The notes under the pieces are model-generated. The model had not been told where the DNA came from. It ran no database searches and worked only from the letters and a program-made list of their open reading frames with translations. Shown one piece after another: positions 30,783 through 59,005 of a DNA stretch of 64,000 nt; position 1 is the stretch's first letter; every line of letters begins with the position of its first letter. The DNA lies in contig CAWILU010000006.1 in assembly GCA_963837055.1 (NCBI GenBank), positions 192,389 through 256,388 of the forward strand. Direction: 5' to 3'. The translations under genes and the position numbers were made by a program. The stretch is from an uncultured Acidobacteriota bacterium. GTDB lineage: Bacteria; Actinomycetota; Acidimicrobiia; Spongiisociales; ZC4RG35.

Positions 30783-30807
30783 GTGGCCCCCCTCGGAGGC
30801 CGGTTGC

Positions 30808-30862: not shown

Positions 30863-30892
30863 GGAGTTGATGATGCGAGCCTCATCAACTCC
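30863..30892 (-). other. Perfect 11-bp hairpin spanning the nuoL stop codon
   Basis: ggagttgatga-tgcgagcc-tcatcaactcc. The stop TGA lies at 30887..30885, inside the 3' arm. Confidence 0.6.
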
Positions 30893-37781: not shown

Positions 37782-37799
37782 TCGCGATTTCCAATCACC

Positions 37800-37819
37800 T
37801 CTGGGGGGCGACCCCCAGA
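37800..37819 (-). other. 8-bp GC hairpin in the 121-nt nuoF-nuoG spacer
   Basis: tctggggg-gcga-cccccaga. Confidence 0.4.
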
Positions 37820-37902
37820 CCCCCGCTCGCCTTGCAGGCAGCCTGCCAAATCATCTCGGCGATCTCTTGCACAGGTCACCTCGACAGATATTCGCGTCGG
37901 GC

Positions 37903-39219: not shown

Positions 39220-39839
39220 GTGTTGCCCTCGCTGCCAACCGTTCCCAGCGGCTGGAACGCCGGATAGGGCCCGATCGCCCCGTCTTCCTCTCTGATCGCC
39301 CAATCGAAGCTTCGCACCCCACCGAACAGCTCTTGCATCTCGTCGGTGTTGACGATCGCTGGCTGAGCGCTCCCCAACCATCTCACCAGATCACGGGCCT
39401 TTTCCGGGGTGACCCCTTCGATCAGCTCGTAGTTGACCTGGACCGCCGGGGCCCCGCCGCAGGCGCCGATGCACTCGACGTGCTCCACGGAGAGAAGTCC
39501 ATCTTCGCCGGTCTCGCCGTGGGGGACCCCCGATTCGTCTTCCACCGCGTGAAGCACGTCGTCGCCGCCCAGGAGCATGCAAGAGATCGAGGTGCAGCAC
39601 GAGATGAGGTATCGCCCGGTCGGGCGCCGTTTGTACATCGTGTAGAAGGAGGCGACCGCCTGGACCTGGGCCGGGGTGATCCCCACCCAGCGGGCCACTT
39701 CTTCCATGCCCTCGTTGGTGAGATGACCTTCTTCAGCCATCGCCAGATAGAGCAATGGCATCACGGCCGACCGCTTCTGGGGATACCTGGAGATGATCTC
39801 CCGGGCCCGCTCCTGGGTGGCCTCCGACCAGTGGCTCAT
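39216..39839 (-). CDS. nuoE: NADH-quinone oxidoreductase subunit E (operon 2)
   Basis: 2Fe-2S cysteines in CCTSISCMLLG and ECIGACGGAP. Confidence 0.9.
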   Translation of the reverse strand: MSHWSEATQERAREIISRYPQKRSAVMPLLYLAMAEEGHLTNEGMEEVARWVGITPAQVQAVASFYTMYKRRPTGRYLISCCTSISCMLLGGDDVLHAVEDESGVPHGETGEDGLLSVEHVECIGACGGAPAVQVNYELIEGVTPEKARDLVRWLGSAQPAIVNTDEMQELFGGVRSFDWAIREEDGAIGPYPAFQPLGTVGSEGNT

Positions 39840-39888
39840 CGACGGCGCAGAATAGGTAGCACCGTTATCAGGGGCGAAACCCGGCTGT

Positions 39889-41229
39889 CTACCGGTCGAC
39901 GTCGCCCATCACCGGGTCGAGGGACGCGATCGTGGCGACGGTGTCGGCCATCAGGGAGTCGGCCATGGCGATGGGAAGGGCCTGGAGGTTGGCGAAGGAC
40001 GGGGCCCGGGTGTGCATCCGGTAGGGACAGGCCCCGCCATCGGAAACCAGATAACACCCAAGCTCGCCCCGGGGTGACTCGACCGCCACGTAGGTCTCCC
40101 CGGCCGGGACCTTGTAACCCTCGGTGAACAACTTGAAGTGATGGATCAGCGCCTCCATCGATTCGTCGATCCGGGCCCGGGGCGGCGGGGTCACCTTGCG
40201 ATCGTCGACCCGATAATCGCCTTTGGGCATGGTGTCCATGACCTGCTCGACGATCCCCAGGGACTGCTTGATCTCCTCGACCCTGATCCGGTAACGGTCA
40301 TAGACATCGCCGTGCTCACCGAGCGGGACCTCGAACTCGTACTGCTCGATGCCGCTATAGGGGAATGCCTTGCGGATGTCCCAGTCGACACCGGTCGAGC
40401 GCAGCGGCGGCCCGGTGATCCCGTAGGCGATGGCCTCCTCCGCCGTCAGCACCCCGACGTCCTTCGTGCGGGCCAACCAGATCGGGTTGTTCTCGAGGAG
40501 GTCATCGTATTGACCCAGCCGCCTGGGGAGCTCCTCGATGATGGCGGCAACGTCGTCCTTCCAACCCGGTGGCAGATCGGCGGCCACCCCTCCCGGTCGG
40601 ATGAAGTTGTGGTTCATCCGCAGCCCGGTCGTCTTCTCGAAGAAGGCGAGGATCTGCTCCCGCTCTCGGAAGCCGTACATCATCATGGAGATGGCCCCGA
40701 TATCCATCCCGTTGGTGGCCAGCGCGACGAGATGCGACGAGCATCGGTTGAGCTCAGTGAGGAGCACCCGGATTGCAGCGGCCCTCGGTGGGACCTCGAT
40801 CCCGAGCAGCCGCTCCACCGCCAGCGCGTAGGCCAGCTCGTTGTGAAGCGGGGCCAGGTAGTCCATGCGGGTCACATTGGTCCCGCCCTGGGAGAAGTTG
40901 AGCTGCTCCCCGGTCTTCTCCATCCCGGTATGGAGATATCCGATGATCGGCTTGGTCCGCCGGATGATCTCCCCCTCCAGCTCGATCTGGAGCCTGAGCA
41001 CACCATGTGTGGACGGATGCTGGGGGCCCATGTTGAGGATCATCCGCTCGTCCTCTTCGGCCTCGTCGTCGAAGACGTAGTCGTCGTCGATCACCCGCCC
41101 GAACTCTTCGGCGAGACGGCCCTCCGGTTCGTCGAGGGTCATCTCCTGGGCGCCCTCGTCGGTCGGCGTCAATTCCGGCTCCTCGGTGCCGGCCACCCAG
41201 ACGTCGAGATTCTTGGCGTCGTCGCTCAT
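39889..41229 (-). CDS. nuoD: NADH-quinone oxidoreductase subunit D (operon 2), acidic N-terminal extension
   Basis: LNMGPQHPSTHGVLRL, and it ends in SLDPVMGDVDR. Confidence 0.9.
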   Translation of the reverse strand: MSDDAKNLDVWVAGTEEPELTPTDEGAQEMTLDEPEGRLAEEFGRVIDDDYVFDDEAEEDERMILNMGPQHPSTHGVLRLQIELEGEIIRRTKPIIGYLHTGMEKTGEQLNFSQGGTNVTRMDYLAPLHNELAYALAVERLLGIEVPPRAAAIRVLLTELNRCSSHLVALATNGMDIGAISMMMYGFREREQILAFFEKTTGLRMNHNFIRPGGVAADLPPGWKDDVAAIIEELPRRLGQYDDLLENNPIWLARTKDVGVLTAEEAIAYGITGPPLRSTGVDWDIRKAFPYSGIEQYEFEVPLGEHGDVYDRYRIRVEEIKQSLGIVEQVMDTMPKGDYRVDDRKVTPPPRARIDESMEALIHHFKLFTEGYKVPAGETYVAVESPRGELGCYLVSDGGACPYRMHTRAPSFANLQALPIAMADSLMADTVATIASLDPVMGDVDR

Positions 41230-41230
41230 C

Positions 41231-41770
41231 TCAACTCGCCTTGTGGCTTTCCTTGAACTGGACCGGCACCGCGCCGACGCCGAAGTCCTTGCGCAACGGA
41301 TGGCCCTCCCATTCGTCGGGCATGAGGATGCGGGTCAGATCGGGGTGCCCTTCGAAGACGATCCCGAACATGTCATACGCCTCGCGCTCGGCGAAGTTGG
41401 CTCCGGGCCAGACCGGCACGAGTGAGGCGACAGTCGGCTCGAGGCGAGGGGCCGTGGTGCTCATGCGAAGCCGAAGGCGATGCTGCATCGACAAGAGGTT
41501 GGCAACGACCTCGAATCGGTCGGGCCGCGCGCGCATCCAGTCGACGGCGGTGACATCGACACACACTTCGAACCCGGCCTCTTTCGCCGCGGTGGCGAAC
41601 TCGAGCCAGCCCTCGTTTGGCACCCGAGCCACGTCCTGACCCAACGACGACTCCCACGTGACGTCCTCGAATCTCTCGAACAGAGTCTTGAGGACTTCGT
41701 TCTCGGGAAGGATCCGCGCCGGGACCTCGATGGCCTCCTCGATCTCGATCGGTTGAGAATCGTCGGTCAA
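41231..41770 (-). CDS. nuoC: NADH-quinone oxidoreductase subunit C (operon 2)
   Basis: [28 protein letters not shown]. Start TTG 41770 forms TTGA with the nuoB stop. Confidence 0.85.
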
Positions 41771-42234
41771 CTGGCGATCTCGCCCTTCATGATCTTGTCG
41801 TGCAGGGTGAGGATCCCGTGCATCAGGCTCTGCGGCCCCGGTGGGCAACCCGGCACGTAGATATCGACCGGTACCACCTGATCGACGCCCTGGACCAGGG
41901 CGTAGTTGTTGAACATGCCCCCGGTGGAGGCGCAGGCCCCCATCGAGATCACCCATTTCGGGTCGGGCATCTGGTCGTACACCTGTCGGAGCACCGGGGC
42001 CATCTTCTGGCTGACCCGCCCGGCCACCACCATGAGATCAGACTGCCGGGGTGAGGCGCGGAACACCTCCATCCCGAACCGGCTCAGGTCGTAGTGGGCC
42101 GTCCCGGTGGCCATCATCTCGATGGCGCAACAGGCGAGGCCGAACGAGGCGGGAAACATCGACCGGGTGCGGGCCCAGCGAGCGGCCTTGTCGATCGTGG
42201 TCATGAGCAGATTGCCCGGAGCGGTGGTGGCCAT
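41767..42234 (-). CDS. nuoB: NADH-quinone oxidoreductase subunit B (operon 2)
   Basis: [29 protein letters not shown] 42234 overlaps the nuoA stop. Confidence 0.9.
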
Positions 42235-42644
42235 CAGGCAGCCTCGTCGCTGGCGTCGGCGGGGATGTAACGGGCCCGACGATGGACGTTCCAGTCGAGA
42301 GCGCCCCGCTTCCACACATAGGCGAGGGTCTCGGCCACGAAGAAGGTGAAGATGAAGATCGCCGCCACCCCGTACCAACCCAGACGGTCGTAGATCGAGG
42401 CCCAGGCGAAGAGGAAGATGATCTCGACGTCGAAGATGACGAACAGCATCGCCACCAGATAGAACTTGACCGGGAAGCGCTGCACCGGCTCGGTCTCGGG
42501 GACGATCCCGCTCTCGTAGGGGTCGAGCTTGGCCGCGGTGGGATTATCGGGCCGGACCAGACGGGAGGCGATCAGGGACACGGCCACGAAGACTGTCGCC
42601 AGGATGAGCATGATCCCGATCGGCAGATAGTCGGCCAGAGTCAC
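42234..42644 (-). CDS. nuoA: NADH-quinone oxidoreductase subunit A (operon 2)
   Basis: [25 protein letters not shown] start at 42644 (uncertain). Confidence 0.85.
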
Positions 42645-42680
42645 CTTCTGAGCTTAGGACAGGCTGATTGATGGGGTAAA

Positions 42681-46794: not shown

Positions 46795-47460
46795 TCAGCC
46801 GATCAGCTGGTCGGCGATCGCCTTCAGGTCGGTGCCAAAGACCTCGGGCATCGCCCCGGGCAGGCTCCAGAAGCATCCCGGCCTCTGGACGAAGGCTGCG
46901 GATGCGCCGGCATTCATCGCCCCTGCCACATCCCAATCGTGGGCCGAGATCAACATCGATTGAGCGACGTCCACATCCATCACATGGGCCGCATGGCGAT
47001 AAGTGGCCGGGTCCGGCTTGAACCGGCCCAACTCCTCGACCGAGATCACGCGCTGGATGAACGTGTGCAACCCTGCGTTCTCGATCTGCACGTTCGCCGC
47101 CTTGGTGCTCCCGTTGGTCAGGGCGGCGGTACGGAACCCCGTATCGAGCAGACCCTCGAGAGCCGGGATCACATCGAGGTGGGCAGGGAGGATGGCGAGC
47201 CGGGTGACCAGCTCGGTAGCGGTCGCCTCATCGAGGTCCACCCCGCGACGCTCAGCCACCAAGAGAAGCGCTTCGACCCCGATCACCCCGAAGGCCCGGT
47301 AGTCATCGAGGTGATTGGAGACGAGTGACCCATGCAACAGACGAGCGAACCACTCCCCCATTGCATCAGCGCTGCCAAAGACATCCTCGAAGTCGATCCG
47401 CAGGGGCGACATGTCGAGCAACGTCTCGTTCACGTCGAAAACGAGTAGCTCGGGCCTCAC
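46795..47460 (-). CDS. HAD-superfamily hydrolase (haloacid dehalogenase type II-like)
   Basis: LLVFDVNETLLDM (DxxxT/motif I variant), ALTNGS, ISAHDWDVAGA. GTG 47460 forms GTGA with the upstream stop. Confidence 0.65.
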   Translation of the reverse strand: MRPELLVFDVNETLLDMSPLRIDFEDVFGSADAMGEWFARLLHGSLVSNHLDDYRAFGVIGVEALLLVAERRGVDLDEATATELVTRLAILPAHLDVIPALEGLLDTGFRTAALTNGSTKAANVQIENAGLHTFIQRVISVEELGRFKPDPATYRHAAHVMDVDVAQSMLISAHDWDVAGAMNAGASAAFVQRPGCFWSLPGAMPEVFGTDLKAIADQLIG

Positions 47461-48692
47461 GATGTCGGAAGGGTCCGGACGATCGCAGCCAGGGCGTCGT
47501 AGGTCCGCTCTCCCATCTGCTTCTCGTCTTCGTCGAGCAAGTTCGCCATGACCTTCAAAGTCCATTCCATCAACGACCGGCTCCGCAGCCCGGTGTGGGC
47601 CAGTGTCCGCATCACAGACGGGTGACCGATCAACTTCACGAAGATGCGGGCCATCTTGTAATAGAGCCCGTATTCATCTTCGAGTTGTTGTGGATATCGG
47701 CGTAACAGCCCGAAATCTGCAGTTCCCAATGCCCGACCGACGTGCTCGGCGGCGATGCGGCCGGTCTCGTAGGCGTAGGAGATCCCCTCGCCGTTCCAGG
47801 GATTGATCGCCCCGGCGGCGTCACCGATCGTGATCCAATTGGCGCCCACCAGGGGGCCCTTGGAGAATGACATGGTCAGCTTCCCGCCAACCGGGTTGGT
47901 CAGCTTCGACTCCTCGCTCAACTCCCAGTACTTCGGCGCCGTTGCCACGTAGTCGGCCATCATGTGGGTGGTGTTGACGTGCTTCCAGCGGGTGAAAGTG
48001 GAGAGCAGGCCGACCCCGACGTTGACCGTCCCATCACCGAGGGGAAAAACCCAGCCGTAACCGGGCATGGTCGCCCCGGTCGAGTCCCTCAGGTCGAGCT
48101 GGCTCTCCAGGAAGGGATCCTTCGAAAGTGGCGACGAGTAGTACCCCCGAGCGGCCATGCCCATCGGGTAGTCCCGGCGCCGCTCATTGCCCAGTTCCCG
48201 CCCGAACCGATTCATGGAGCCATCCGCGATCATGGTGATCCGGGGGGTGACCACCTCTTCAGTTCCACCATGGGCGAGCACGACACCGGTCAGCAGCCCC
48301 GCTTCGATCATCGGCGTCGCCGTGGTCTTCTCGAGGATCCTGACTCCCTGCTTCTCGGCGAGGGTGGCCACCTGACCGTCGAGGTCGCGTCGTCGCATCA
48401 CGCCACCCCAGTTGGGGAAGCGCGAATGATCGGGCCAGGTGAGCTCGACGTATCCCTCGCCTGCGTAAGAGCGGAGACCGGTGATCCGGTGGAACTCGGG
48501 GACGTCGAATTCGAAGCCCATGTCCTGGAGCTGGAGAACGGCCCGTGGCGTGAGACCGTCGCCACAGGTCTTGTCCCTGGGGTATTCCTTCGCTTCGACC
48601 AGAGTCACCTCGTGGCCGTCCCGGGCCAGCCAGTAGGCGGCGGCCGATCCGGCCGGGCCGCCACCGACTACGAGGACGGAGGGCGAGGACAT
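47457..48692 (-). CDS. Geranylgeranyl reductase family FAD-dependent oxidoreductase (possible menaquinone/isoprenoid reductase)
   Basis: VLVVGGGPAGSAAAYWLA, KTCGDGLTPR, GDAAGAINPWNGEGI. Confidence 0.8.
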   Translation of the reverse strand: MSSPSVLVVGGGPAGSAAAYWLARDGHEVTLVEAKEYPRDKTCGDGLTPRAVLQLQDMGFEFDVPEFHRITGLRSYAGEGYVELTWPDHSRFPNWGGVMRRRDLDGQVATLAEKQGVRILEKTTATPMIEAGLLTGVVLAHGGTEEVVTPRITMIADGSMNRFGRELGNERRRDYPMGMAARGYYSSPLSKDPFLESQLDLRDSTGATMPGYGWVFPLGDGTVNVGVGLLSTFTRWKHVNTTHMMADYVATAPKYWELSEESKLTNPVGGKLTMSFSKGPLVGANWITIGDAAGAINPWNGEGISYAYETGRIAAEHVGRALGTADFGLLRRYPQQLEDEYGLYYKMARIFVKLIGHPSVMRTLAHTGLRSRSLMEWTLKVMANLLDEDEKQMGERTYDALAAIVRTLPTS

Positions 48693-48764
48693 CGTGCCGA
48701 GAGGTTAGATACCGGGGCCTGGTAGCCGGGATTCTGATAATCCGAAGCGGGTTTAACGTGAGCT

Positions 48765-48780
48765 TGTGAATGAAATCCCA
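48765..48780. promoter_or_regulatory. Rex-operator-like site overlapping the rex start codon
   Basis: TGTGAATGAAATCCCA versus the Streptomyces ROP consensus TGTGAAnnnnTTCACA: 10 of 12 defined positions match. Confidence 0.3.
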
Positions 48781-49383
48781 AAGGCCACGGTGGTCCGTCT
48801 CCCCCGCTATCTCAGATTGTTGGAGGACCTCGACTCATCCCGCGACGTCGTCAGCTCGGAAGAGCTAGCCACCGCAGCCGGGGCAAACGCCGCCAACGTG
48901 CGCAGGGATCTCTCCCACCTCGACTTTCACGGTGTGCGCGGGATCGGCTACTCGGTCGGTGAGCTCAAGGCGCGCATCCGCCAGGAGCTGGGGATCGCCG
49001 AACGCCGGAAGGTCGCCATCGTCGGGGCCGGGAACCTGGGCCGAGCCCTGGCCAACTACGGGGGGCTGAGCCGACGCGGGTTCGATGTGATCGCGCTCTA
49101 CGACACCGATGTGAAGAAGATCGGCTCGACTGTGGGGAGCGTGACCATCCAGGATCTCGAGGTCCTCGACGGTGATTGCCAGTCGAAGAACTTCGAGATC
49201 GCCATCCTCGCCGTGCCCGCCGTGGCGGCACAACAGGTGGCCGATCGTCTGGTGGGGCACGGGATCCGCTCCATCCTCAATTTCGCCCCGGTCCGGGTGA
49301 ATGTTCCCGAGACGGTCTCGGTCCGTCAGGTGGATCTGTCGATGGAGCTACAGGTGCTGAGTTATTACGGGAGCCGGCTGTAG
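48766..49383 (+). CDS. rex: Redox-sensing transcriptional repressor Rex
   Basis: IPKATVVRLPRYLRLL, and the Rossmann motif VAIVGAGNLGRALANY. Confidence 0.9.
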   Translation: MNEIPKATVVRLPRYLRLLEDLDSSRDVVSSEELATAAGANAANVRRDLSHLDFHGVRGIGYSVGELKARIRQELGIAERRKVAIVGAGNLGRALANYGGLSRRGFDVIALYDTDVKKIGSTVGSVTIQDLEVLDGDCQSKNFEIAILAVPAVAAQQVADRLVGHGIRSILNFAPVRVNVPETVSVRQVDLSMELQVLSYYGSRL

Positions 49384-49387: not shown

Positions 49388-49771
49388 CTAGGCCCTGGCC
49401 TTCTCCTGCACTTCCTCGTACTGGTGCAGCGCCACCAGAAAGGCGAGAAAGAGCACCAGCGACACCAACAGATAGGTGATCGGGATGATCCGGATCTCGA
49501 ACGCGTTGAGGCCTTCGATGTCGGCCGGCTTGGGGCCACGCGGTGCATAGACCACGAACAACATCGAGGTGATCGTCAGCCAGCCGAACACCGCCGCCCC
49601 CGTCACCAGGAACCCGAGCCGTTTGCCCAGGTTGGTGTAATTGAACAGGTAGATCGAGCCGTAGAACAACGCAATCGCGGCCAGGGTGAGGATGATCCCG
49701 GTCACGAAGAGATTGGCCGAGAACAACGACCGGAAGAGCTCACGGAAGAACAACGGTGGCCTCCTTCCCAT
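49388..49771 (-). CDS. Small 4-TM membrane protein, last gene of the Rieske/cyt b operon
   Basis: 127 aa with four hydrophobic helices. It overlaps the cytochrome c gene end by 32 nt. No family recognised. Confidence 0.55.
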   Translation of the reverse strand: MGRRPPLFFRELFRSLFSANLFVTGIILTLAAIALFYGSIYLFNYTNLGKRLGFLVTGAAVFGWLTITSMLFVVYAPRGPKPADIEGLNAFEIRIIPITYLLVSLVLFLAFLVALHQYEEVQEKARA

Positions 49772-51662
49772 CCATGTTCCCGCCCCTCAGATAGCGGGCG
49801 AGCAACTCGATGTCATCCAGGCTCAGACTGGCGCCAAAAGCGGGCATTCGTCCCGAGCCGAAGCCATTGATCCCATACGGTGTCTCTGGTTGTGAACCTC
49901 TGATCAGGAACTGGATCAAGAGATCCTCTTCCGGGCTCTCCGTCGCTTCACCGAACTGGACGGTCGGCCGGCCGTCCCACAGCGCGGGGCCGAAACCGCC
50001 CGAGCCTGCCTCCTGCGTGTAGGGCACACCGGCGCTGTACCCGGCGGTGTGACACCGGGCGCAATTGGAGTTGAACAGACCTACCGCACGCTCCGCCTCG
50101 TCGGGCGACGAGCCCATGGCCTCTGCCACGCCGGCGAAATCGATCGAGTACAGCTGGGCTTCCAACGACTCCTCCAGATACCGGAGGCCTCCCTCTTCCT
50201 GCTCCAGGAGGGCATCCTGATTCTCCGACGTGATCGTGATCGTCGTCGACAGCGATTCCAGATTGCCGACCAGGGCGATGGCGGTGGCAGCATCGGGCTC
50301 GCCGCCGACTGAAGCCGGATTGGTCGGATCGAGAGTGACGAGTGTGATTTGGCTCGGGGTGGTCGCGGTGATGGCGGCGTCGACCTGGCTGGTGATGGCG
50401 GCCTCCGCTCCGGTGGACAACCCGTCGCCGTCGGGGTCCGAGCCTTCCTCGATGGCCGCGGTCGCAGCCGCGGCGAGGTCCGCCGCCCCCTCCACCGGCT
50501 CCTCGGCACCCGCCGCCTCGGTCAGCGCCGCCACCAGCTCGTCGGCGGCCCCGACGTCTTCAATCGCGCCCGGGACTTCGATCCCTGCCTCCTCGGCCGC
50601 AGCCCTGGTCTCCTCCAGAGTGGTCAATGCAGCGGTGCTCAGACCAACGGCTGGGTCGACCGCGCCGTCCTCCATCGCCGTCTCGATCGCCGCCACGTTG
50701 CCCAGGACAATCGGGTCTGTTTCAGACGCGTCTTGCAACGAGGCCAAGGCCTCATCAGCCAGCTCGGCGTCGGCTACCTCGGGATCGAGGGCGATCGGCT
50801 CCATGATCTGGAACCCGGCCACAGCCTCTGCAGAGATGTCGCTCAACTCGGTCTCGGCTGCGTCCGACACCCCATCGGCGTCGGTGTCGATCCCGGTCCC
50901 CGCCCCGGCCAGGACCTCACGAGCCCGGGTTGCGAGGGGCACCACGAGGTCGGCGTCCTCTGAAGCAGACTCGATGTTGGCTACCACCTGTCTCTGCTCG
51001 AGGATGGCCGCCTCGACAGCGGCGTCGGCGGTTTCGAGACGATCCAAAGCAGTGTCGATGCCCGGCTGGATATCCCCCAGGTTCTCATCCTGCGTCACCT
51101 GGATGGTCGCCAGATAGTTGACCACGTCCTCGACCTGCTGCTCGTTGAGTGGCCCACCGCCCGGGACGCCCCAGGCCGGCATCGGGGTGTTGCCCCGGCC
51201 GTACGTGACCCAGAAATTGACCTCGTCCTCCTGATATCGGAAGAAGACGTCGTTGAGAGAGGGCACCGCCCAATCCACCGTGACGCCGGACCGTTTCTCC
51301 ACGTATGGGGCAACTCCGCCCGATCCTTCCGGGCCGTGACAGTTGAAACAGCCGAACTCCTCGACCAGGTGCGCGCCACGCTCCACCGATCCCACGGCGA
51401 ACTCTTCGACGAATCCTGCCTGGCGATCCGGTTCGGTGAGGAAATAGAGAGGCAAGGAAATGGCGAGAAAGGCCGAGAAGGCGATAGCGGCTTTTTGCCC
51501 GCCCTCCAGACGTCGGGTCTCGATTTGCTCGTCGTCGATGCCTGGGCGGAGGTTGGGAGCGACTTCCTCACTGCCGCGGTTGCGGATCGCCGACACGAAA
51601 AGAAATCCGAGCCATGCGATCCCTGCGACCAGGGCGATGACCGTGATGATGTTGGCTGTCAT
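49740..51662 (-). CDS. Membrane-anchored dihaem cytochrome c with a ~340-aa acidic low-complexity insert
   Basis: N-terminal TM segment. CFNCH...TPMPAW and CARCH...GRMPAF haem-c motifs lie about 435 aa apart. ATG 51662 forms ATGA with the Rieske stop. Confidence 0.8.
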   Translation of the reverse strand: MTANIITVIALVAGIAWLGFLFVSAIRNRGSEEVAPNLRPGIDDEQIETRRLEGGQKAAIAFSAFLAISLPLYFLTEPDRQAGFVEEFAVGSVERGAHLVEEFGCFNCHGPEGSGGVAPYVEKRSGVTVDWAVPSLNDVFFRYQEDEVNFWVTYGRGNTPMPAWGVPGGGPLNEQQVEDVVNYLATIQVTQDENLGDIQPGIDTALDRLETADAAVEAAILEQRQVVANIESASEDADLVVPLATRAREVLAGAGTGIDTDADGVSDAAETELSDISAEAVAGFQIMEPIALDPEVADAELADEALASLQDASETDPIVLGNVAAIETAMEDGAVDPAVGLSTAALTTLEETRAAAEEAGIEVPGAIEDVGAADELVAALTEAAGAEEPVEGAADLAAAATAAIEEGSDPDGDGLSTGAEAAITSQVDAAITATTPSQITLVTLDPTNPASVGGEPDAATAIALVGNLESLSTTITITSENQDALLEQEEGGLRYLEESLEAQLYSIDFAGVAEAMGSSPDEAERAVGLFNSNCARCHTAGYSAGVPYTQEAGSGGFGPALWDGRPTVQFGEATESPEEDLLIQFLIRGSQPETPYGINGFGSGRMPAFGASLSLDDIELLARYLRGGNMDGKEATVVLP

Positions 51663-52552
51663 GCCCCGGCGGCCGGTGCCACGGCGCTGATGCAACTAGG
51701 ACCCTGCGGATAGGCGACGCTCAGCTCGGGCGCTCGAGGTGTCTCGATCCTGGTACCGGTCTTGATGATGAGGATCCCACCCTGGTTCTCGACGACGAAC
51801 CGGTCGAGGTTCCGCGGAGCCGGGCCTCCGAAATACTGGCCGATGGCGTTGTACCTCGACCCATGACAGGGGCACTCGAAACCCTGCGACGGCGCGCACC
51901 AAGGAACCCGGCATCCGAGATGGACACATCGCATGTAAAGCGCCATCAGACCGTCGGTTTCGACGCTCTTGCCTTCGAATTGGGCTGACGGCTCCTCTGG
52001 GGCGGGAACGATATAGGCCCGTGCCTCGGGTATGAACAGCGGTAGCACGGCTCCGCCCGGGGTGAACACCTGGGTGCGGAGATCCGAGATGGGGCCGGCC
52101 GTGATGTCGGCCCCGAAGCCGCCGGTGAGTTTGGGCCAGAAAAACACGAGGTAGTAGAGGCCCTGGCCGGCGAGAAAAGTGCCGAAGGTGGCGACGATGG
52201 CGCGGTTGAAGAACTGGCGCCTGTTGACGCCACCTTCTTCGGGAGATACCTCCACGATGCGCTGGGTCTCGAGGATGTCGACGACTGCATCGGCTTCCTC
52301 CACCTGCTCCTCGGTTTGCTCCGCCTCGGGCTCCGCCGGCTCGTCGACGTCCGGCTCCTCCTCGACCAGAGGAGGGACGACGACCGCGGTAGCGGCCGAT
52401 CGATCCGCGGCCAAGGTTTCCGCCGAGACACCGGCCAAGGGATCGGGTTTCTCGGCAGTCTGCGATCGGCGGTAGGCGACGGCGAACGCACCGGCCGCCC
52501 CGAGGATCGCCACGACGGCGACCGCAATGAGGGCGGCGTTGGTCCAGGTCAT
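51659..52552 (-). CDS. Rieske [2Fe-2S] subunit of a quinol-cytochrome c reductase-type complex
   Basis: CVHLGCRV and CPCHGSRY boxes, an internal RRQFF Tat-like motif, and an N-terminal TM segment plus acidic linker. Confidence 0.85.
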   Translation of the reverse strand: MTWTNAALIAVAVVAILGAAGAFAVAYRRSQTAEKPDPLAGVSAETLAADRSAATAVVVPPLVEEEPDVDEPAEPEAEQTEEQVEEADAVVDILETQRIVEVSPEEGGVNRRQFFNRAIVATFGTFLAGQGLYYLVFFWPKLTGGFGADITAGPISDLRTQVFTPGGAVLPLFIPEARAYIVPAPEEPSAQFEGKSVETDGLMALYMRCVHLGCRVPWCAPSQGFECPCHGSRYNAIGQYFGGPAPRNLDRFVVENQGGILIIKTGTRIETPRAPELSVAYPQGPSCISAVAPAAGA

Positions 52553-53652
52553 TCGAATTGCACCCAGTCCTTCAGGTCATCGAAATAGACCCCGTCCTTC
52601 CACGGGTAGGAGAAGTTGAAGCCAAGACCGCGGAATAGGACCCCGAAAATGGTCAACGTCGCGGCGCCGGCCAGGAACACCGAGTAGAGGGCGATGGCGA
52701 ACTTGCGGTCACTCGGCCGGGTAGACGGGTTCTTGTCGACGTAGGGCACCATCATGAAACCGATGATCCCCGTGATCGTGGGCACCGTGACGCCGGCGAT
52801 CTGGGGGTCGAAGTAGGACAGCAGCTCCTGGAGGCCGAGGAAGTACCACGGCGCCTTCGACGGGTTCGGGGTGGCGTTGAAATTGGCCGGGTCGAGCAGC
52901 GGGGAGTGGATGATCACCGACATGATCACCACCAGACCAGTGATGGCCAGCAGCGCACCGAATTCCATCAACATCAGATGGGGCCAGGTGTTGACCTTGT
53001 CGGTTGGCTCCGCCTTGACCGTCTGGATCGCCCTCGCCTTGACCACGGTGAGCAGACGCTGGGTGCGCACCCCTTCGGGCGTCCCCTTCGGGGGCACGGT
53101 GGGACGGGCGCTGACCACGGCCGCCACTTTTCCCGCGCCGTTTCCGGAGCCACTCCCTGCGCCGTTGCCCGCGCCGTCGCCCGCGCCGTCACCGGCTTCC
53201 GGGGCGGGACGGTCCTCGACCGCGGTAGCGACCGATGCGGCGACGGGCTCGACCTCGGTGTCGGGCTGGGCCTCGGTGTCAGGCTGGGCCTCGGTGTCAG
53301 GCTGGGCCTCGGGAGCCTCATCAGTCTCGGCTTCGGTAGGCGGCGCCGGTGGCACCTCTGCCTCGGCCGCGGCCTCGACCTCCGGCGTCTCCGTCGCCGC
53401 CGCCTCGGCAGGGACCTCCTCGGCCGGGGCAGGCTCCTCTTCGACCGCTTCCACTGCCTCTTCGATCTCCTCGGAACGCTCGGCCGAAGCCTCCATTTCC
53501 TTGGCCGGCTCCGGCTCGGGCTCGGCCGAAGGGGGTGGTGTCGGCGGCGCCTCGCCCTTCATCTCGGCCAGGACCTGTTCGACGGGGAGCCCCAATGCTT
53601 TGGCCTTGGCCTCTGCCGACCTTCTGAGGAGACTCTCTGGTATCTCGGTCAT
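52549..53652 (-). CDS. Cytochrome b C-terminal part / b6f subunit-IV-like protein with long N-terminal extension
   Basis: The C-terminal ~170 aa carries PNPSKAPWYFLGLQELL (PEWY-type motif) and 3 TM segments. The N-terminal ~190 aa holds a conserved module plus PDTEAQ and GAGDGAG repeats. Confidence 0.75.
   Translation of the reverse strand: MTEIPESLLRRSAEAKAKALGLPVEQVLAEMKGEAPPTPPPSAEPEPEPAKEMEASAERSEEIEEAVEAVEEEPAPAEEVPAEAAATETPEVEAAAEAEVPPAPPTEAETDEAPEAQPDTEAQPDTEAQPDTEVEPVAASVATAVEDRPAPEAGDGAGDGAGNGAGSGSGNGAGKVAAVVSARPTVPPKGTPEGVRTQRLLTVVKARAIQTVKAEPTDKVNTWPHLMLMEFGALLAITGLVVIMSVIIHSPLLDPANFNATPNPSKAPWYFLGLQELLSYFDPQIAGVTVPTITGIIGFMMVPYVDKNPSTRPSDRKFAIALYSVFLAGAATLTIFGVLFRGLGFNFSYPWKDGVYFDDLKDWVQFE
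53253..53312. repeat. 18-bp tandem repeat (3.3 copies) inside the subunit-IV-like gene
   Basis: cctcggtgtc[g/a]ggctggg repeated head to tail, encoding (PDTEAQ)n on the minus strand. A 12-bp GC-rich repeat lies nearby at about 53150..53195. Confidence 0.8.
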
Positions 53653-53661: not shown

Positions 53662-54438
53662 TTAAAGCGGCCCTGAGATGCCGCCGTCCTTGCGCACTCG
53701 CCAGAAATGGACGGCGAGGAAAATCACGAGGACGAACGGAAACGCGAGCACATGCAGCACATAGAAGCGAAGCAGGGTGGAGGCCGACACCTCCACGCCG
53801 GCAAGCAAGGCGAATTTGACCTGATTTCCCACCACGGGGACGAAGCCGGCCATGTTGGTCCCAACCGTCACCGCCCACAGCGCCAGCTGGTCCCAGGGAA
53901 GGAGATAGCCGGAGAAAGAGAGGAGCAGGGTGAGGAAGAGGAGTACGACACCCACCACCCAGTTGAACTCACGAGGGGGTTTGTAGGCGCCGTGATAGAA
54001 GACCCGGCTCATGTGGAGGAAGACGGAGAGGACCATCAGATGGGCGCCCCAGCGGTGCATGTTCCGGACCAGGGAGCCGAAGGCGACGTTGGTGGAGAGG
54101 GCCTCGATATCGGCATAGGCGGTCTCGGCCGACGGCGTGTAATAGAACATCAGGAAGATGCCGGTGATGGTCAGGAGGATGAAGAGGAAGAAGCTGAGAC
54201 CGCCGAGACAGAGTGTGTAGGACAGCTTGACCCCGTGCCGCTTCACCTTCACCGGGTGGAGGTGATAGAGCACGTTGTTCATCACGACGTACGACCGGTT
54301 CCTCGGGCTGTCCGAGTATCCCTTTTTGAACGGCGAGCCAGGGCGGAGGATCGACTCGGCGACCTGGGAGCCCCAGACCTTGTCGTTCACCTCTTTGATT
54401 CTCGCCCCGATGCCGGGCTTACCGTTGCCGTTGGCCAC
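53662..54438 (-). CDS. Cytochrome b6-type (N-terminal four-helix) cytochrome b
   Basis: [46 protein letters not shown], and the second His pair in [23 protein letters not shown]. Start GTG 54438 follows AGGAGG. Confidence 0.85.
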
Positions 54439-54446: not shown

Positions 54447-54896
54447 CTACCAGCGCATCCCGTAGGCATAACCATTCTTGAAGTCCCTCTGCCCGGTGTC
54501 GAAATCCCAGGGCCGGCGGTCGAGACCGAGCTCCACGGCCTGCTCGGCGAGCGACCCCTCGAATTTGCCCAAGGTGATGACGTTGGTCGGGCAGCGATCG
54601 ACGCACAGAGCGCACCGGGTGCACTCGTCTTCGTCGACCACGAAAAAGCCGAGATTCTGCGGATCCTCACCGGGGTGGTCGACATTGACTCCCTCGGTGA
54701 TCGCATCGAGCGACAGGTAGTGGATGCACTTCCAGGGGCAGATGTCGACGCAGCCCTCGCAAATGATGCATTCGGCCTGATCGATGTGGAGGAACTGCTT
54801 GGGGCGGAGCTTGTCGGTGAAATAGTCGCCCTCGACCACTGCCAACTGATAGTCGTCGCGATATGGAGGCGTCTCGTCGACGACACCCTTGGGCAT
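54447..54896 (-). CDS. 2x[4Fe-4S] ferredoxin-type protein
   Basis: [12 protein letters not shown] and [15 protein letters not shown] 54896 overlaps the upstream stop by 1 nt. Confidence 0.8.
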
Positions 54897-55502
54897 CAGC
54901 CTTCGCCTCTGACGAGCGGCCGCCCATAAGGCGAGCGTGGCGGTTCCTTGTCGGCGGACACAGGTGGGCCCTTCTTGATCTTCTGGAGCTGAAGGACGAA
55001 CACGGCGGCCGCTCCGAGCATGACCAGGTGATAACCCATCGAGATCGAGTCTTTGATCGCGGCGTAGCTGAGCTGGACGTCGTTGCCCAGGACGAGCACC
55101 GGCGGGATGGTCAGGGCAACGCGTTGCGACGACCAGTCGAGATCGGTTTGTGCGAAGTTGAGCCATTCCGAGGGGACCATGCCGAAGATGATGACCAGCT
55201 CGATCCAAGAGATGAAGGCGGCGAACAGGGCGCGGGCCCAGGTCAACCGCTGATTGAGAACCCAGAGGAACAAGGCGCCGACAACCAGCATCTGGGATGC
55301 GCCGAAGACGACCAGATACCCGAGTCCCTTCCAAATCGCGCCGCGTGGGGATCCAATCGAAGATGCCTCCATCCTCCCCGGGCGCCAGGCTGGAATAGTG
55401 GATCCAGATCACCCCGACGACGAGAGCGACGAAGCCGAGACCGAGCAGTCCCCACCCGATGCTCTTGCGTCTGCTGTCGCTGAGTTCTGCCAGCCGGTAC
55501 AT
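54896..55502 (-). pseudogene. Membrane protein, first gene of the Rieske/cyt b operon, apparent frameshift
   Basis: Frame A reads MYRLAELSDSRRKSIGWGLLGLGFVALVVGVIWIHYSSLAPGEDGGIFDWIP, then turns Arg-rich. Frame B (ORF 54896..55372) continues RGAIWKGLGYLVVFG... with 3-4 TM segments. Junction near 55337-55352. Alternatively an intact 158-aa gene starts at ATG 55372. Confidence 0.5.
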
Positions 55503-55603
55503 CTCACGTTCTTCGGGCGCGCCGGTACAACCTGTTCACGTCGTTTCTACCACAACCCGGGTCTCGTTAGAGAACCTGCCGGGGACCCGGCAGCGGCGAC
55601 GCA

Positions 55604-57124
55604 GTGGCTGCGGTGGGAATCGATGAAGTAGTTATGCTCCCGCCGTCCCGTTCCGCGACGAGGGAACCCTTGGCCGCAACCCAAACTGCAGACATCAGGG
55701 CCCTGCTCGGGGCCGGTGACGAAGACCGCGTCGCCGTAGCCCATTTCCTCGTCGGCGCCTTGTTCCTCGTCGTGGCCGGTGTCTTCGAGCTTCTCTCTCT
55801 CTTCGCCCTGAGATTCGGCGGGCTCGCCCCGATCAGCTACGGCCGGGCCGAGTCGCTGGCCAACGTCACCGTCATGCTCGGGTTCCTCGTCCTCACTTTG
55901 GCCGGCGGCATCTACTACGTCCTCCCCAGACTGACCGGGGCTCGGCTGTGGAGGAAAGAGCTGGCCTATCTCGGTCTGCTCGGGGTGTCCGGTCTGGTGG
56001 TCCTCGACCTTCTCGCCATCGTCTTCGGCTTTGGCGAAGGCCGCCAGCCGTTCGGCGTTCCCTGGTGGCTCCATCTCCCGATGCTGGCCGTTCTCCTCAT
56101 CCCCCTGGCTGTCACCGTGATGACTATCCGGCGGCGCGAGGAACAACGGAGCTTCGTCACGCTCTGGTTCGTAATGGGTGGAGTCGTCTGGCTCCCATTG
56201 CTCTACCTCGTCTACACCGTTGGACAGCTCCCGTTCTTCTCCGCTCTCGGCGAGGAATACTCAGATCTCTTCTTCTCCGCCGGGTTCGTCACCCTCTGGG
56301 TGTTCACGGTGGGCAGCGGGCTCTTCTATTACACCCTCGTCAAGGAGCTGGACATCCCGCTCGCCTCCCGCCAGCTGGCCTCGGTTGGCTTCTGGTCGTT
56401 GGGATTCGCAGCAGCATGGTGGGGCTCAGCCCAGCTCGTGTTCGGCCCTGGGCCGGGCTGGATCGACGGAGTGTCAGCCGCGTTGGGCCTCGCCTTTCCG
56501 ATTGGGGCACTGGCCAACGCATCGAATGCCTCGGTCACCCTCCAGGGCCACTGGGAGGAGCTGGGCGACAAGCCGGGGGTGGTGTCGGGGGTCTTGGGTC
56601 TCTACCTGGGAGTGGCAGTGGCAATCCTCGCCAGCTTCGCCTCCTTCCCGTCCGTGGGATCGGTGACCGCGCTCACGGCTTATTGGGAGGCGATCGAATA
56701 TGCCGCTCTCTACGGGGTGGGAGTGCTCCTTGCCGCCGGGATCGTGTTCGAGGCCCTGCCCCGTGTCGCCGGTCGTGAGCTGGCCTCTCTGGACCGCCCC
56801 CGGTCGTTCAATCGCTGGACTGTGATCGGCGTCGGCGGCGTCGCGGTCAGCCTTGTGGCATCCGGGCTGGTCAGCGGCTACTCGTGGGTGGCCGGGTCCA
56901 ATAGCGCGGCCTATGTCGACGTTGGTGAAGGTTGGGCTGCGGGAGCCGGGACGGCCGAGGTCCTGCTGCTCGTTGCATTCGGGTTCGGCATCATCGCCTT
57001 CCTCGGCCAGCTGGCTTACGCCGCCACAGTCCTCGGGACCGTCACCATCGGGAAGGCGGTCCCCCAGGAGGTGCTGGTCTACGGGTTGGAGCCGCCGGGC
57101 GGCGAGGAAGTCGCTGATGAGTGA
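55604..57124 (+). CDS. cbb3-type oxidase subunit I (CcoN)-like 12-TM protein lacking the canonical His ligands
   Basis: Blocks resemble CcoN (ISYGRAESLANVTVMLGF, GGIYYVLPRLTGARLW, TLWFVMGGVVW, ALANASNASVTLQGHWEEL). Only 3 His in 506 aa, none at expected ligand positions. Start uncertain (GTG 55604 or ATG 55634). Confidence 0.6.
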   Translation: MAAVGIDEVVMLPPSRSATREPLAATQTADIRALLGAGDEDRVAVAHFLVGALFLVVAGVFELLSLFALRFGGLAPISYGRAESLANVTVMLGFLVLTLAGGIYYVLPRLTGARLWRKELAYLGLLGVSGLVVLDLLAIVFGFGEGRQPFGVPWWLHLPMLAVLLIPLAVTVMTIRRREEQRSFVTLWFVMGGVVWLPLLYLVYTVGQLPFFSALGEEYSDLFFSAGFVTLWVFTVGSGLFYYTLVKELDIPLASRQLASVGFWSLGFAAAWWGSAQLVFGPGPGWIDGVSAALGLAFPIGALANASNASVTLQGHWEELGDKPGVVSGVLGLYLGVAVAILASFASFPSVGSVTALTAYWEAIEYAALYGVGVLLAAGIVFEALPRVAGRELASLDRPRSFNRWTVIGVGGVAVSLVASGLVSGYSWVAGSNSAAYVDVGEGWAAGAGTAEVLLLVAFGFGIIAFLGQLAYAATVLGTVTIGKAVPQEVLVYGLEPPGGEEVADE

Positions 57125-57941
57125 GCTGAGCGCCGCCGCTGCCGAGGCCTTGGGCATCCCCGAGGCGATCGTCTCGCGGTCGGCTGCCGCCCGCGCTGAG
57201 GAAACCGGGATGACCGTTGACGAGGTTCTCGCCGCATGGGCCGGTGGCGGGGACATCCCGGCTCCTGTTTCCTCCCCCGGGAGCGAAGCGACTTTGGGTG
57301 AGGTGGATCGGCCGGAGGCCGAGACGGAGGGGGCTCCGGAACCCGTAAGAGACGACACTCCCCCCTCCCCGCCTCCGGCGGTACTCCCCCCTGCGGGGAG
57401 AGAAATGCCGCCGCCGGCCGTTCCCGGAAAGCCACCGGTCCTGATCGGAGAGACCGACAACCCGATCGCGGTGCTGGTGGGCGCGGTCGGTCTGTTCGTC
57501 GCTCTCTTCCTGGTCGGCGTTGTCGGCCCTTCCCTACCCACAGAGAACCCGGGGGCACGCACCAGTGAGCTGCCCTACAGCGCTGCGGGCCTCCATGGGC
57601 AGGACATCTACCAGTCTGTGGGCTGCGCTTCGTGCCATACCCAGATGGTCCGTCCCGTGATAGCGGACGTCGGCCTCGGTGCGGTCTCTCTCAATGACAG
57701 CAACCAGGTGCTCGGCTCACGCCGCTTCGGGCCGGATCTCTCCGATATCGGTGGACGTACCTCTGCCAGCCAGATCGAAGCAGTGATAACCGGTTTCGAT
57801 GGTCATCCGTCGCTGTCGCTGTCTACGGAGGATCTCGACGCGCTGGTCACCTATCTGGTCGAGTCGGCGACTCTCGAGGAGGCTCCGGCAGAAGAGCCCG
57901 TCGAGGAAGAGGCGGCTGAGGAAGAGGCAGCGGCTCCATGA
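57117..57941 (+). CDS. CcoO-like monohaem cytochrome c subunit with N-terminal conserved module
   Basis: GQDIYQSVGCASCHTQMVRP and GSRRFGPDLSDIGGR match CcoO. N-terminal module MSELSAAAAEALGIPEAIVSRSAAARAEETGMTVDEVLAAWAGGG, then a Pro-rich linker and a TM segment. It overlaps the upstream gene by 8 nt. Confidence 0.7.
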   Translation: MSELSAAAAEALGIPEAIVSRSAAARAEETGMTVDEVLAAWAGGGDIPAPVSSPGSEATLGEVDRPEAETEGAPEPVRDDTPPSPPPAVLPPAGREMPPPAVPGKPPVLIGETDNPIAVLVGAVGLFVALFLVGVVGPSLPTENPGARTSELPYSAAGLHGQDIYQSVGCASCHTQMVRPVIADVGLGAVSLNDSNQVLGSRRFGPDLSDIGGRTSASQIEAVITGFDGHPSLSLSTEDLDALVTYLVESATLEEAPAEEPVEEEAAEEEAAAP

Positions 57942-59005
57942 GCGATCTGAGCGCTGCCGCGGCCGCTCTCGGCGTCCCTGAGGCCATCGTGCAACGGTCG
58001 GCTGCGGCGCGCGCCACCGAGACCGGGATGACCGTCGACGAGGTGCTGGCCGCCTGGGCCGGTGGCGGATCGGTAGCAGGAGCTCCCGCTCCGTCTGCGG
58101 AGGACGCGCCACCCGCTGAGGTCGAAGAGGCAGTCGAGGAAAAGGCCGCCCCCTCCCCGCCTCCGGCGGTCGTTCCCCCTTCGGGTGGAGAGACGCCGGT
58201 CGAGCCGGCTGCGGCCCCCGCAGGTCCGGTGACTCGTTCGCCTGTCCCGGCCGAAGTCACCGCTGCCGAGGCAGCAGGTTTGCCCGAGGTGGTCACGGTG
58301 CCTACTGCAGGGATCAGGGAGCGCCCCAACTTCGCCATCCCTCGGTGGCTGGCCGCGGTGATGCTGATCATTCCCGCTTTCGCTCTGTTCGCCCTGGGCG
58401 GGTCCGCCACCGGCGAATGCGGCGAGTCGACCGAGCTCGACACCGACGTGATCACCGGTGAGGTGGTGAATTGCGACGGGACCGAGTTCACCGGATCCGG
58501 CACCGGGGGCGGTGGCGCCGACTTCATCGCCATGGGCGAGGACGTCTACATGAACGTCGCCAACTGCGACGGCTGTCATGGCGCCCAGGGAGAGGGTGGG
58601 GTGGGACCAGGTTTCGCCGGGGTGGTCAACACCTTCGGCTCCTGCGCCGATCACATCGAGTGGGTCACCCTCGGCTCGGCCGGTTTCCAGGCCGACGGGC
58701 GGGGAACCTACGGGGACACAGGCAAGGCGATAAACGGAGGCATGCCCGCATTTGGGGATAGTTTGAGTCCCGAGCAACTCGCCTCGGCAGTCGCCTACGA
58801 GCGGGTCCGTTTCGGTGGCGCCGACCCGGCCGAGGTCCTGACCGACTGTGGTCTCGCACCGGCGGAGGGTGAGGAAGGCGAAGAGGGCGGTGCCCCCGGT
58901 GAGACGACTCCGGGCTCGACCACCCCCGGTGAAGAGGCCCCGGCAGACGGCGAGACAACGACCACCGTGAGCGGCGCCGAGGCTGCGATCGCCCGCGTGC
59001 CCTGA
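57938..59005 (+). CDS. Membrane-anchored class-I cytochrome c (CcoP-like role) with the same N-terminal module
   Basis: CDGCHG ... GGMPAF. The N-terminal MSDLSAAAAALGVPEAIVQRSAAARATETGMTVDEVLAAWAGGG is paralogous to that of the preceding gene. ATGA overlap. Confidence 0.7.
   Translation: MSDLSAAAAALGVPEAIVQRSAAARATETGMTVDEVLAAWAGGGSVAGAPAPSAEDAPPAEVEEAVEEKAAPSPPPAVVPPSGGETPVEPAAAPAGPVTRSPVPAEVTAAEAAGLPEVVTVPTAGIRERPNFAIPRWLAAVMLIIPAFALFALGGSATGECGESTELDTDVITGEVVNCDGTEFTGSGTGGGGADFIAMGEDVYMNVANCDGCHGAQGEGGVGPGFAGVVNTFGSCADHIEWVTLGSAGFQADGRGTYGDTGKAINGGMPAFGDSLSPEQLASAVAYERVRFGGADPAEVLTDCGLAPAEGEEGEEGGAPGETTPGSTTPGEEAPADGETTTTVSGAEAAIARVP

Follow-up and report, generated by a model that had tools for sequence, protein, structure and literature searches.

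A cbb3-type oxidase subunit I homologue without haem or copper ligands, conserved with cytochromes c and a divergent Rieske/cytochrome b6 operon in Acidimicrobiia

Introduction

The cbb3-type cytochrome c oxidases are encoded by ccoNOP operons, in which the gene for a 12-helix subunit I (CcoN) is followed by the genes for a monohaem cytochrome c anchored by a transmembrane (TM) helix (CcoO) and for a membrane-anchored cytochrome c (CcoP), with translational coupling between them. The same fold, gene order and coupling recur in a gene trio at positions 55604-59005 (+ strand) of a stretch of 64,000 nucleotides (the window) from contig CAWILU010000006.1 of GenBank assembly GCA_963837055.1, an uncultured bacterium of the class Acidimicrobiia. 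Its first gene (55604..57124) encodes a CcoN-like protein that we refer to as pseudo-CcoN. In contrast to canonical CcoNOP, the trio lacks the six His ligands of the haems and copper, the cross-linked Tyr and the propionate-binding Arg, and its products remain below the equivalog cutoffs for CcoN, CcoO and CcoP. The second protein, a FixO/CcoO-like cytochrome c, is without about 80 residues of CcoO and has His for the distal Met, and the third subunit has one haem where CcoP has two. A preliminary description of the trio had read it as a cofactor-less oxidase scaffold, kept by selection in an operon with haem c subunits and not previously described; this core reading is supported on every testable point.

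Two further groups of described systems are relevant for comparison. The nitric oxide reductases (NORs), comprising cNOR (NorBC), qNOR and gNOR, are derivatives of the same superfamily that do not reduce O2, and cNOR likewise has a monohaem cytochrome c partner. The NORs, however, keep both haems and FeB (three His and one Glu), whereas pseudo-CcoN has none of the six His; that an active-site His can be replaced is illustrated by gNOR (Murali et al. 2024, PMC11214002). The second group is found on the side of the divergent operon in the window, which shares a split b6/subunit IV, an APWY motif and a CxGG motif with the APWY-clade complexes of Kao & Hunte 2014 (PMC4122944). According to that study, none of these complexes has been characterised and they possibly run in reverse; the term 'cbb3' is absent from its searchable text, which therefore describes no oxidase-like partner for the clade. 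The operon also resembles the Geobacter ExtMNOPQ-type clusters (PMC5877670) in that its b6 protein passes the ExtP cutoff and a 4Fe-4S ferredoxin gene lies alongside.

Results and discussion

Pseudo-CcoN has the predicted fold of a C-family subunit I

Both profile searches and structure prediction place pseudo-CcoN in the haem-copper oxidase superfamily. The Pfam COX1 profile (PF00115) matches the protein with 71.7 bits (gathering score 34.8), and a phmmer search of the PDB returned exclusively CcoN chains of cbb3 oxidases (9g83_t, 9g6b_A, 6xkw_n, 3mk7_A and 8smr_E), reproducing each of the six block alignments to CcoN on which the preliminary description had relied. An AlphaFold2 (AF2) model, computed from a 25-sequence alignment, comprises 12 long helices (predicted template modelling score, pTM, 0.82). 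Its best PDB match in Foldseek is the CcoN structure 3mk7 (template modelling score 0.80/0.87, root-mean-square deviation 3.0 Å, 18% identity), with NorB and then the A/B-family (ba3/aa3) subunits I ranking behind, and neither phmmer nor Foldseek found a closer solved structure than CcoN in a 2026 copy of the PDB. Profile similarity and a 12-TM subunit I fold, by which membership in the superfamily is recognised, are thus both present (PF00115, AF2, Foldseek), and we consider pseudo-CcoN confirmed as a genuine C-family subunit I homologue at the level of sequence profiles and of the structural model. Assignment to an unrelated transporter family was ruled out by the COX1 profile, the CcoN-only PDB matches and the fold match. 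The CcoN equivalog TIGR00780, on the other hand, scores 85.2 bits against a cutoff of 583.15. The protein does not qualify as a cNOR or qNOR subunit either, with no His at the ligand columns and a fold match to NorB that is weaker than that to CcoN.

All six histidine ligands are replaced

In CcoN of Pseudomonas stutzeri, haem b is held by what we take to be His60 and His347, haem b3 by His345, and CuB by His207, His257 and His258. We located the corresponding columns with three alignments, namely phmmer, MAFFT with 114 full-length homologues, and hmmalign to the family profile. In pseudo-CcoN they contain A86 and Y366 (for His60 and His347, haem b), I364 (for His345, haem b3), and A226, A276 and Q277 (for His207, His257 and His258, CuB). 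The family set used throughout consists of 115 full-length sequences that are about 60-100% identical, the window protein included with its 114 homologues. All six columns are non-His in every one of the 115 (MAFFT); Q277 is invariant, and the Y366 column is Tyr in 114 of them. The claimed loss of the haem b, haem b3 and CuB histidines is therefore borne out by phmmer, MAFFT and hmmalign, and together with Foldseek these comparisons of profile and structure place no His at any ligand position. Of the six His ligands of the low-spin haem, the high-spin haem and CuB/FeB that define the superfamily, and that Sousa et al. 2011 (PMC3084760) required for inclusion, not a single one is present in 115/115 sequences. 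The 506-aa reading of pseudo-CcoN contains exactly three His (positions 47, 157 and 316), the number given in the preliminary description. Misalignment as a source of the missing ligands was rejected, as the three alignment methods and the structural match agree and none of these three His is anywhere near a ligand column.

The replacements extend beyond the direct ligands. The column of the cross-linked active-site Tyr of helix 7, presumably Y251 in P. stutzeri CcoN, contains Ala in pseudo-CcoN and Ala, Gly or Ser in all 115 family members, and the invariant, propionate-binding Arg of the canonical RPLH motif corresponds to E83. Replacements of this kind affect several positions with 90-100% conservation among canonical representatives, including the ligands, the RPLH Arg and T234. 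The residues that canonical and ligand-less proteins have in common are mostly Gly, Pro, Trp, Tyr and Arg, a composition that, as judged from the alignments, is typical of fold conservation.

Because every residue that holds the haems and the copper has been lost, pseudo-CcoN can hardly be an oxidase. We consider it highly probable that the protein is non-catalytic, cofactor-free and maintained by selection, where the absence of any cofactor is what we infer from the substituted columns. An alternative would be a haem or non-haem metal bound through ligands other than the canonical His, for example Tyr366, His47 or Glu, which could support a new reaction or an electron relay toward the cytoplasmic ferredoxin side. 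Y366 occupies exactly a haem b ligand position and is almost fully conserved, H47 in TM1 is the only conserved His of the family (kept in 112/115), and the cytoplasmic 2x[4Fe-4S] protein encoded by the neighbouring operon needs a redox partner. However, Ala (three times), Gln and Ile occupy the other five positions, the propionate-binding Arg is gone, pseudo-CcoN appears to be devoid of Cys, and the family has no invariant Cys, Met or Lys column. Furthermore, the column of Y366 is Phe, Val, Trp or Leu in other ligand-less clades, so that ligation by Tyr is no general solution. Taken together, we regard such a cofactor as very improbable.

The ligand-less protein is conserved across Acidimicrobiia

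The gene for pseudo-CcoN has an intact reading frame and, as the preliminary description had noted, GC-rich third codon positions (GC content at third positions, GC3, 0.81). The ratio of non-synonymous to synonymous substitution rates (dN/dS) amounts to 0.07-0.14 (Nei-Gojobori, against nine relatives), and the 25-sequence alignment contains approximately 100 invariant columns at a mean column identity of 70%. A homologue search returned at least 405 matches, the best 120 of which are 61-100% identical. In a scan of one genome per GTDB species, 98 stretches encode a relative; the 80 of these 98 that are listed are from uncultured metagenome-assembled genomes (MAGs), nearly all of them Acidimicrobiia and many from soil.

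These data bear directly on the possibility that the gene is a decaying cbb3 oxidase gene, that is, a recently inactivated pseudogene or relic. All catalytic residues are gone, as would be expected of such a gene, and in this window a frameshift affects the gene that lies upstream on the other strand. Against this stand the intact frame and the low dN/dS, the presence of identical substitutions in 115/115 homologues down to 60% identity, the 98 matches in species-representative genomes, and the retained translational coupling to the downstream genes. The orthologue comparison proposed in the preliminary description has the same outcome, with ligand loss conserved in every orthologue examined (115/115) at dN/dS 0.07-0.14. 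Recent decay, one of the roles considered there, is refuted by the shared substitutions, the dN/dS values, the species-representative matches and the conserved cluster, and the chance that the gene is a relic appears negligible.

Two cytochromes c are encoded with pseudo-CcoN

The three + strand open reading frames (ORFs) of the trio, 55604-57124, 57117-57941 and 57938-59005, are present as described, and the sequence bears out the tight junctions reported for them, with an 8-nt overlap between the pseudo-CcoN and FixO-like genes and an ATGA overlap between the FixO-like gene and the third gene, c3. As a mechanical ORF, 55604-57124 encodes 506 aa. The true start is probably the TTG at 55670, giving 484 aa. 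We favour this start because a GAGGGA Shine-Dalgarno sequence lies upstream of it, because 484 aa is also the length of the database copy P0001, and because conservation across the pseudo-CcoN family begins at about residue 24 of the 506-aa reading.

The second gene (57117..57941, + strand) encodes a FixO/CcoO-like monohaem cytochrome c, assigned from PF02433, TIGR00781 and alignments, in which a cytoplasmic N-terminal motif is followed by a Pro/Ala-rich linker, one TM helix and the haem domain. PF02433 matches with 46.9 bits (gathering score 29.6) over the N-terminal half of the model only, and TIGR00781 gives 45.5 against a cutoff of 200.65, short of what a full-length CcoO requires. In phmmer against the PDB, the protein aligns to residues 31-121 of CcoO, with about 80 CcoO residues absent. 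The TM anchor, the CxxCH motif and the GPDL..GGR motif that mark CcoO/FixO proteins are all found, and CxxCH and FGPDL are conserved across the FixO-like family sequences. The distal Met ligand (MPSY) is not, its place being taken by a His when the protein is compared with fused relatives (see below). The preliminary description had seen GHPSLS in the position of the CcoO motif SKMPSY. This pairing does not appear in phmmer against PDB CcoO, which instead aligns 'FDGHPSLS' with the C-terminal 'FDGKPGLT' of Rhodobacter capsulatus CcoO. The replacement of Met by His itself holds, since alignment with the CcoO domains of the fused relatives (WSxMPSYxYLSxxDLDAL) puts the His of 'GHP' at the Met-ligand position, within one residue, and this His occurs in 79 of 80 aligned FixO-like sequences, the 80th having a gap.

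Within the window family, the haem c of the FixO-like protein therefore probably has His/His ligation, as read from these alignments. Such ligation would lower the potential of a haem c. As the fused clades keep the Met, the change from Met to His tunes this one family and is not what defines the module.

The third gene, c3 (57938..59005, + strand), encodes a membrane-anchored class I cytochrome c with matches to PF13442 and PF00034, a CDGCH and a GGMPAF motif, in keeping with the normal class I cytochrome c of the preliminary description. It contains one CxxCH, and the dihaem CcoP model TIGR00782 scores 18.9 against a cutoff of 179.95. Homologues of c3, at 37-40% identity, also follow fused pseudo-CcoN-FixO genes in the loci L084 and L088.

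A cytoplasmic N-terminal motif of approximately 35 aa, P..L..RSA.ARA...G..VE.VLA.W.G, is common to the FixO-like protein (57117-57250, +), c3 (57938-58070, +) and the b6 subunit IV encoded by the divergent operon (53550-53652, -), and is also found in L084 and L088. Relatives carry one to three tandem copies, and no Pfam family matches the motif, even at E-values up to 10. Its distribution suggests that it could be a common docking module.

The trio is divergent from a ferredoxin/b6/Rieske operon

The trio is separated by a divergent intergenic region (55503..55669, read from the sequence) from an operon on the - strand. Its first gene (54896..55502) encodes a conserved membrane protein of about 195-209 aa, recognised by its homologues in L001-L003, L084 and L088 and, in a short form, in L087; no known family could be assigned and there is no Pfam match. 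It is followed by a 2x[4Fe-4S] ferredoxin of 149 aa (54447..54896, Fer4 family matches), in which reading of the sequence revealed no evident signal peptide or TM segment and whose gene lies directly upstream of that for cytochrome b6. The b6-type N-terminal cytochrome b (53662..54438; PF00033, 160.7 bits) starts with GTG behind a GGAGG Shine-Dalgarno sequence, passes the ExtP equivalog NF040969 (301.9 bits, cutoff 290) and has a CxGG motif, TLCLGG, where haem ci could bind. The Geobacter ExtMNOPQ cluster reportedly likewise includes genes for a 4Fe-4S ferredoxin and a Rieske protein. The subunit IV-like C-terminal cytochrome b (52549..53652; PF00032, NF040970 ExtQ) has an APWY Qo motif, and its 35-aa N-terminal motif is followed by a long acidic Pro/Ala/Glu linker with a triple EAQPDT repeat. 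The CxGG motif of b6 and the APWY Qo motif of subunit IV place the complex, on sequence grounds, in the 'APWY clade' of Kao & Hunte.

Downstream lie the genes for a Rieske iron-sulfur subunit (51659..52552; PF00355 and b6f-type Rieske NCBIfam matches), a membrane-anchored dihaem cytochrome c (49740..51662; PF13442 over two stretches) and, as the last gene of the operon, a small conserved membrane protein (49388..49771) that has neither an assigned family nor a Pfam match and is 52% identical to the genes at the same position in L084 and L088. In the dihaem cytochrome c, the two class I domains lie on either side of an acidic linker (about 330 aa, low complexity, weak TSP3-like match) that suggests a long tether; the gene is conserved in 66 loci.

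We compared the window proteins with 83 loci by tblastn. The genes of the divergent operon and of the trio keep one order on every contig of sufficient length, with all nine cluster genes present, and the trio is kept wherever the contig allows, which answers the search for the same three-gene arrangement envisaged in the preliminary description. The divergent arrangement is likewise conserved in the 83 loci, and the unusual Rieske/cytochrome b operon on the other side has turned out to be a ferredoxin operon with an APWY/CxGG-type b6. In relatives of 64-66% identity, the order of the divergent operon is unchanged: ~200-aa membrane protein, ferredoxin, b6, subunit IV, Rieske protein, dihaem cytochrome c, small membrane protein. 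The ferredoxin gene shows the highest conservation in the cluster (86-99% identity over 78 loci), followed by b6 (84-99%, one cut match excepted), and these two evolve slowest; the rate for pseudo-CcoN (57-97%) is close to those for the Rieske protein and the dihaem cytochrome c, and the FixO-like protein evolves fastest.

Ligand-less CcoN-like proteins form a larger and diverse set

A profile search of 1.84 billion 50%-identity representatives returned 978 matches, and we read the ligand patterns of the 96 full-length proteins among the best 150 of these. Sixty-three lack all six His, 21 are canonical, and the rest are partial. In a rough neighbour-joining tree, indicative only, several ligand-less clades stand apart from canonical CcoN. 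Where the preliminary description had seen a single case, pseudo-CcoN is, by these sequence patterns, part of a large and diverse ligand-less set.

One large clade consists of CcoN-like/FixO fusions of 620-700 aa whose haem c domain usually keeps CxxCH and the Met of MPSY. Two such fusions, P0166 (27-29% identical to members of the window family) and P0327, lie in the same divergon, together with genes for the ferredoxin, b6, subunit IV, the Rieske protein, the dihaem cytochrome c, both small membrane proteins and a c3 homologue. The members of another clade carry, at the extracytoplasmic C-terminus, a FixO haem c domain (P0174) or instead a cupredoxin with the type 1 copper motif CDVHPNM (P0161, P0216); one cupredoxin fusion (L087, 5020-7104) is located between a b6/ferredoxin cluster and a cox2-cox1 operon, with ResB/CcsA genes nearby. 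In the P0158 clade (L086, 8001-10578; ligand pattern ANGSRQW), the FixO protein is encoded by a separate gene (169 aa) accompanied by one for a 226-aa protein of no assigned family. The surroundings of this locus comprise genes for a multihaem cytochrome, FHA/Pyr_redox and Fer4/cNMP-binding proteins and the nuo operon.

In each of three lineages examined, less than 30% identical to each other, the ligand-less gene is arranged head-to-head with a ferredoxin/b6/Rieske operon. A ligand-less CcoN-like protein is always co-encoded with an extracytoplasmic one-electron carrier, to which it is fused in many lineages. Every ligand-less protein tested stays below all NCBIfam cutoffs. The fused forms score 118-200 bits on PRK14485, 'bifunctional subunit I/II' (cutoff 1080), and this family was rejected as their home on scores so far below its cutoff.

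The fusions also inform on a possible role in assembly, maturation or regulation, in which a non-catalytic paralogue would chaperone a real oxidase or the b6 complex, or compete for CcoO-type subunits, and would not be a lasting component of the working chain. Pseudoenzymes are often regulators in general, and some of the loci are near cytochrome c maturation genes (ResB/CcsA in L087, CcmE in L086). Yet the ligand-less protein has cytochromes of its own that are co-translated with it, and in many lineages covalently fused, which fits a stoichiometric structural subunit better than a transient factor. A role in assembly or regulation consequently strikes us as quite unlikely.

A possible scaffold for extracytoplasmic electron carriers

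Our best explanation, which we advance with moderate confidence, is that pseudo-CcoN has outlived its oxidase function and is retained as a membrane scaffold, which supports extracytoplasmic electron carriers that work with the Rieske/b6 complex. Its ancestor would have been a C-family (cbb3-type) subunit I that lost haem b, haem b3 and CuB, and with them the reduction of O2 or NO. The remaining 12-helix scaffold, under strong purifying selection, would position one-electron carriers on the outside of the membrane, in this case the CcoO-like monohaem cytochrome c (probably His/His) and the class I His/Met cytochrome c. The module would cooperate with, and probably be physically attached to, the divergently encoded ferredoxin-containing Rieske/b6 complex of the APWY type, and may serve as a fixed electron relay or docking platform in a monoderm actinobacterium. 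We propose a fixed relay or platform because a monoderm cannot retain soluble cytochrome c. Docking onto the b6 complex is supported by the invariant gene order, by the presence of the 35-aa motif on both operons, and by the known docking of cbb3 onto bc1, canonical cbb3 being found in supercomplexes with bc1 according to the entries 6xkw and 8smr. The scaffold mechanism is plausible, and the direction of electron flow is presumed. Since haem c and blue-copper domains are interchangeable on the same membrane domain, the membrane part would not itself need to receive an electron. The preliminary description had listed a structural or electron-transfer-only module among the possible roles, and the haem c and cupredoxin fusions beside ferredoxin/b6 genes favour this choice, with the mechanism still conjectural. 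By analogy, the core proteins of mitochondrial bc1 that resemble the mitochondrial processing peptidase also represent an enzyme fold kept as a structural subunit after catalysis was lost; their fold is unrelated, and their incorporation into the complex is proven, whereas that of pseudo-CcoN is surmised.

Several observations weigh against this scaffold explanation. Physical association with the b6 complex is suggested by gene order and the shared motif only. No Rieske/b6 genes are present within 8 kb of the P0158-type gene in L086, so that the association is not universal. A tblastn search with COX1 and COX2 of the A family detected no real terminal oxidase, either in the 64-kb window or in the 83 family loci. 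A 12-helix protein is, moreover, an expensive anchor. Finally, the invariant polar residues E83, Q277 and Y366 and the nearly invariant E362 and E365 are a hint of more than mere scaffolding, namely of a specific site that might accommodate a cation or protons; from the helix boundaries of the model and the N-in topology of CcoN all five would be near the outer ends of helices 2, 7 and 10.

The last point could be accommodated by an ion- or proton-conducting or cation-binding module that re-uses the polar site and has a role in charge translocation, gating or regulation. Acidic residues could replace the haem propionates at the former Ca2+/propionate site at the subunit interface. In addition to the conservation of the polar residues, E83 replaces an Arg that is invariant in canonical CcoN, the former CuB position is often Arg or Asp in other ligand-less clades, and the full 12-helix fold is kept. 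However, the polar residues are specific to the family and not common to the ligand-less clades, which argues against a common ion pathway, and no driving redox chemistry is left in the subunit. We therefore regard an ion-handling role as unlikely, and retain the scaffold for electron carriers as the preferred explanation.

In a broader form of the proposal, for which we see the case as evenly balanced, ligand-less CcoN-like proteins would constitute one or more large unclassified branches without redox cofactors and be obligatory subunits of a new respiratory assembly in Acidimicrobiia and related Actinomycetota. The assembly would combine an APWY-type Rieske/b6 complex, a cytoplasmic ferredoxin and a 'fossil' cbb3 scaffold with tethered haem c or blue-copper carriers, and the scaffold might retain a cation or proton site.

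Annotation of ligand-less proteins in databases and the literature

In the openly searchable full-text literature, with subscription-only titles outside the search, we found no description of a ligand-less CcoN or of any other ligand-less haem-copper oxidase subunit I. The statement in the preliminary description that the system is not known to be described thus stands for this body of text, and it agrees with the lack of any passed NCBIfam cutoff. The pipeline of Sousa et al. 2011 (PMC3084760) discarded sequences without six His, and Murali et al. 2024 (PMC11214002) state that the active-site His are completely conserved in every family except gNOR. Given this filter and this statement, the group may have been overlooked. 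What appears to be new, as far as sequences can tell, is a cofactor-free, non-catalytic branch of the haem-copper oxidases with conserved partners of its own.

At NCBI and JGI, these ligand-less proteins carry the name 'cbb3-type cytochrome c oxidase subunit I'. For the Acidimicrobiia, a major group of soils and aquatic habitats, conclusions on high-affinity O2 respiration drawn from metagenomes may consequently depend on a protein that would be unable to reduce O2. If the proposal of a new assembly is true, 'cbb3 oxidase' annotations in these abundant soil bacteria are consistently in error. A widespread, selected and cofactor-free branch, if real, would be a blind spot of the field and a case of an oxidase turned structural subunit. 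It would also provide a tangible starting point for the APWY-clade Rieske/b6 complexes, so far uncharacterised, and for their ferredoxin subunit.

Genomic surroundings

Compared with L030, the nearest relative found (95% DNA identity in this region), the first gene of the divergent operon (54896-55502) contains one extra base near 55346. The resulting frameshift may be a sequencing error or a real lesion, and because of it the mechanical ORF 54447-55502 joins parts of two genes. A candidate Rex operator in the divergent intergenic region was rejected, as the window contains a single match, which lies at 48764 within rex itself and does not exceed chance expectation.

Many of the MAG records with this Acidimicrobiia-type locus (L008, L010-L012, L014 and others) are titled 'uncultured Acidobacteriota bacterium'; these titles are probably mislabelled.

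Also in the window, just upstream of the cluster, are a nuo (complex I) operon (26637-42653, -), a gene for a geranylgeranyl-reductase-like flavoprotein (47457-48704, -) and the gene for the redox-sensing repressor Rex (48757-49383, +), which together show that the pseudo-CcoN trio belongs to an island of respiratory genes. The loci L003, L084 and L088 likewise have Rex and the flavoprotein together with the cluster.

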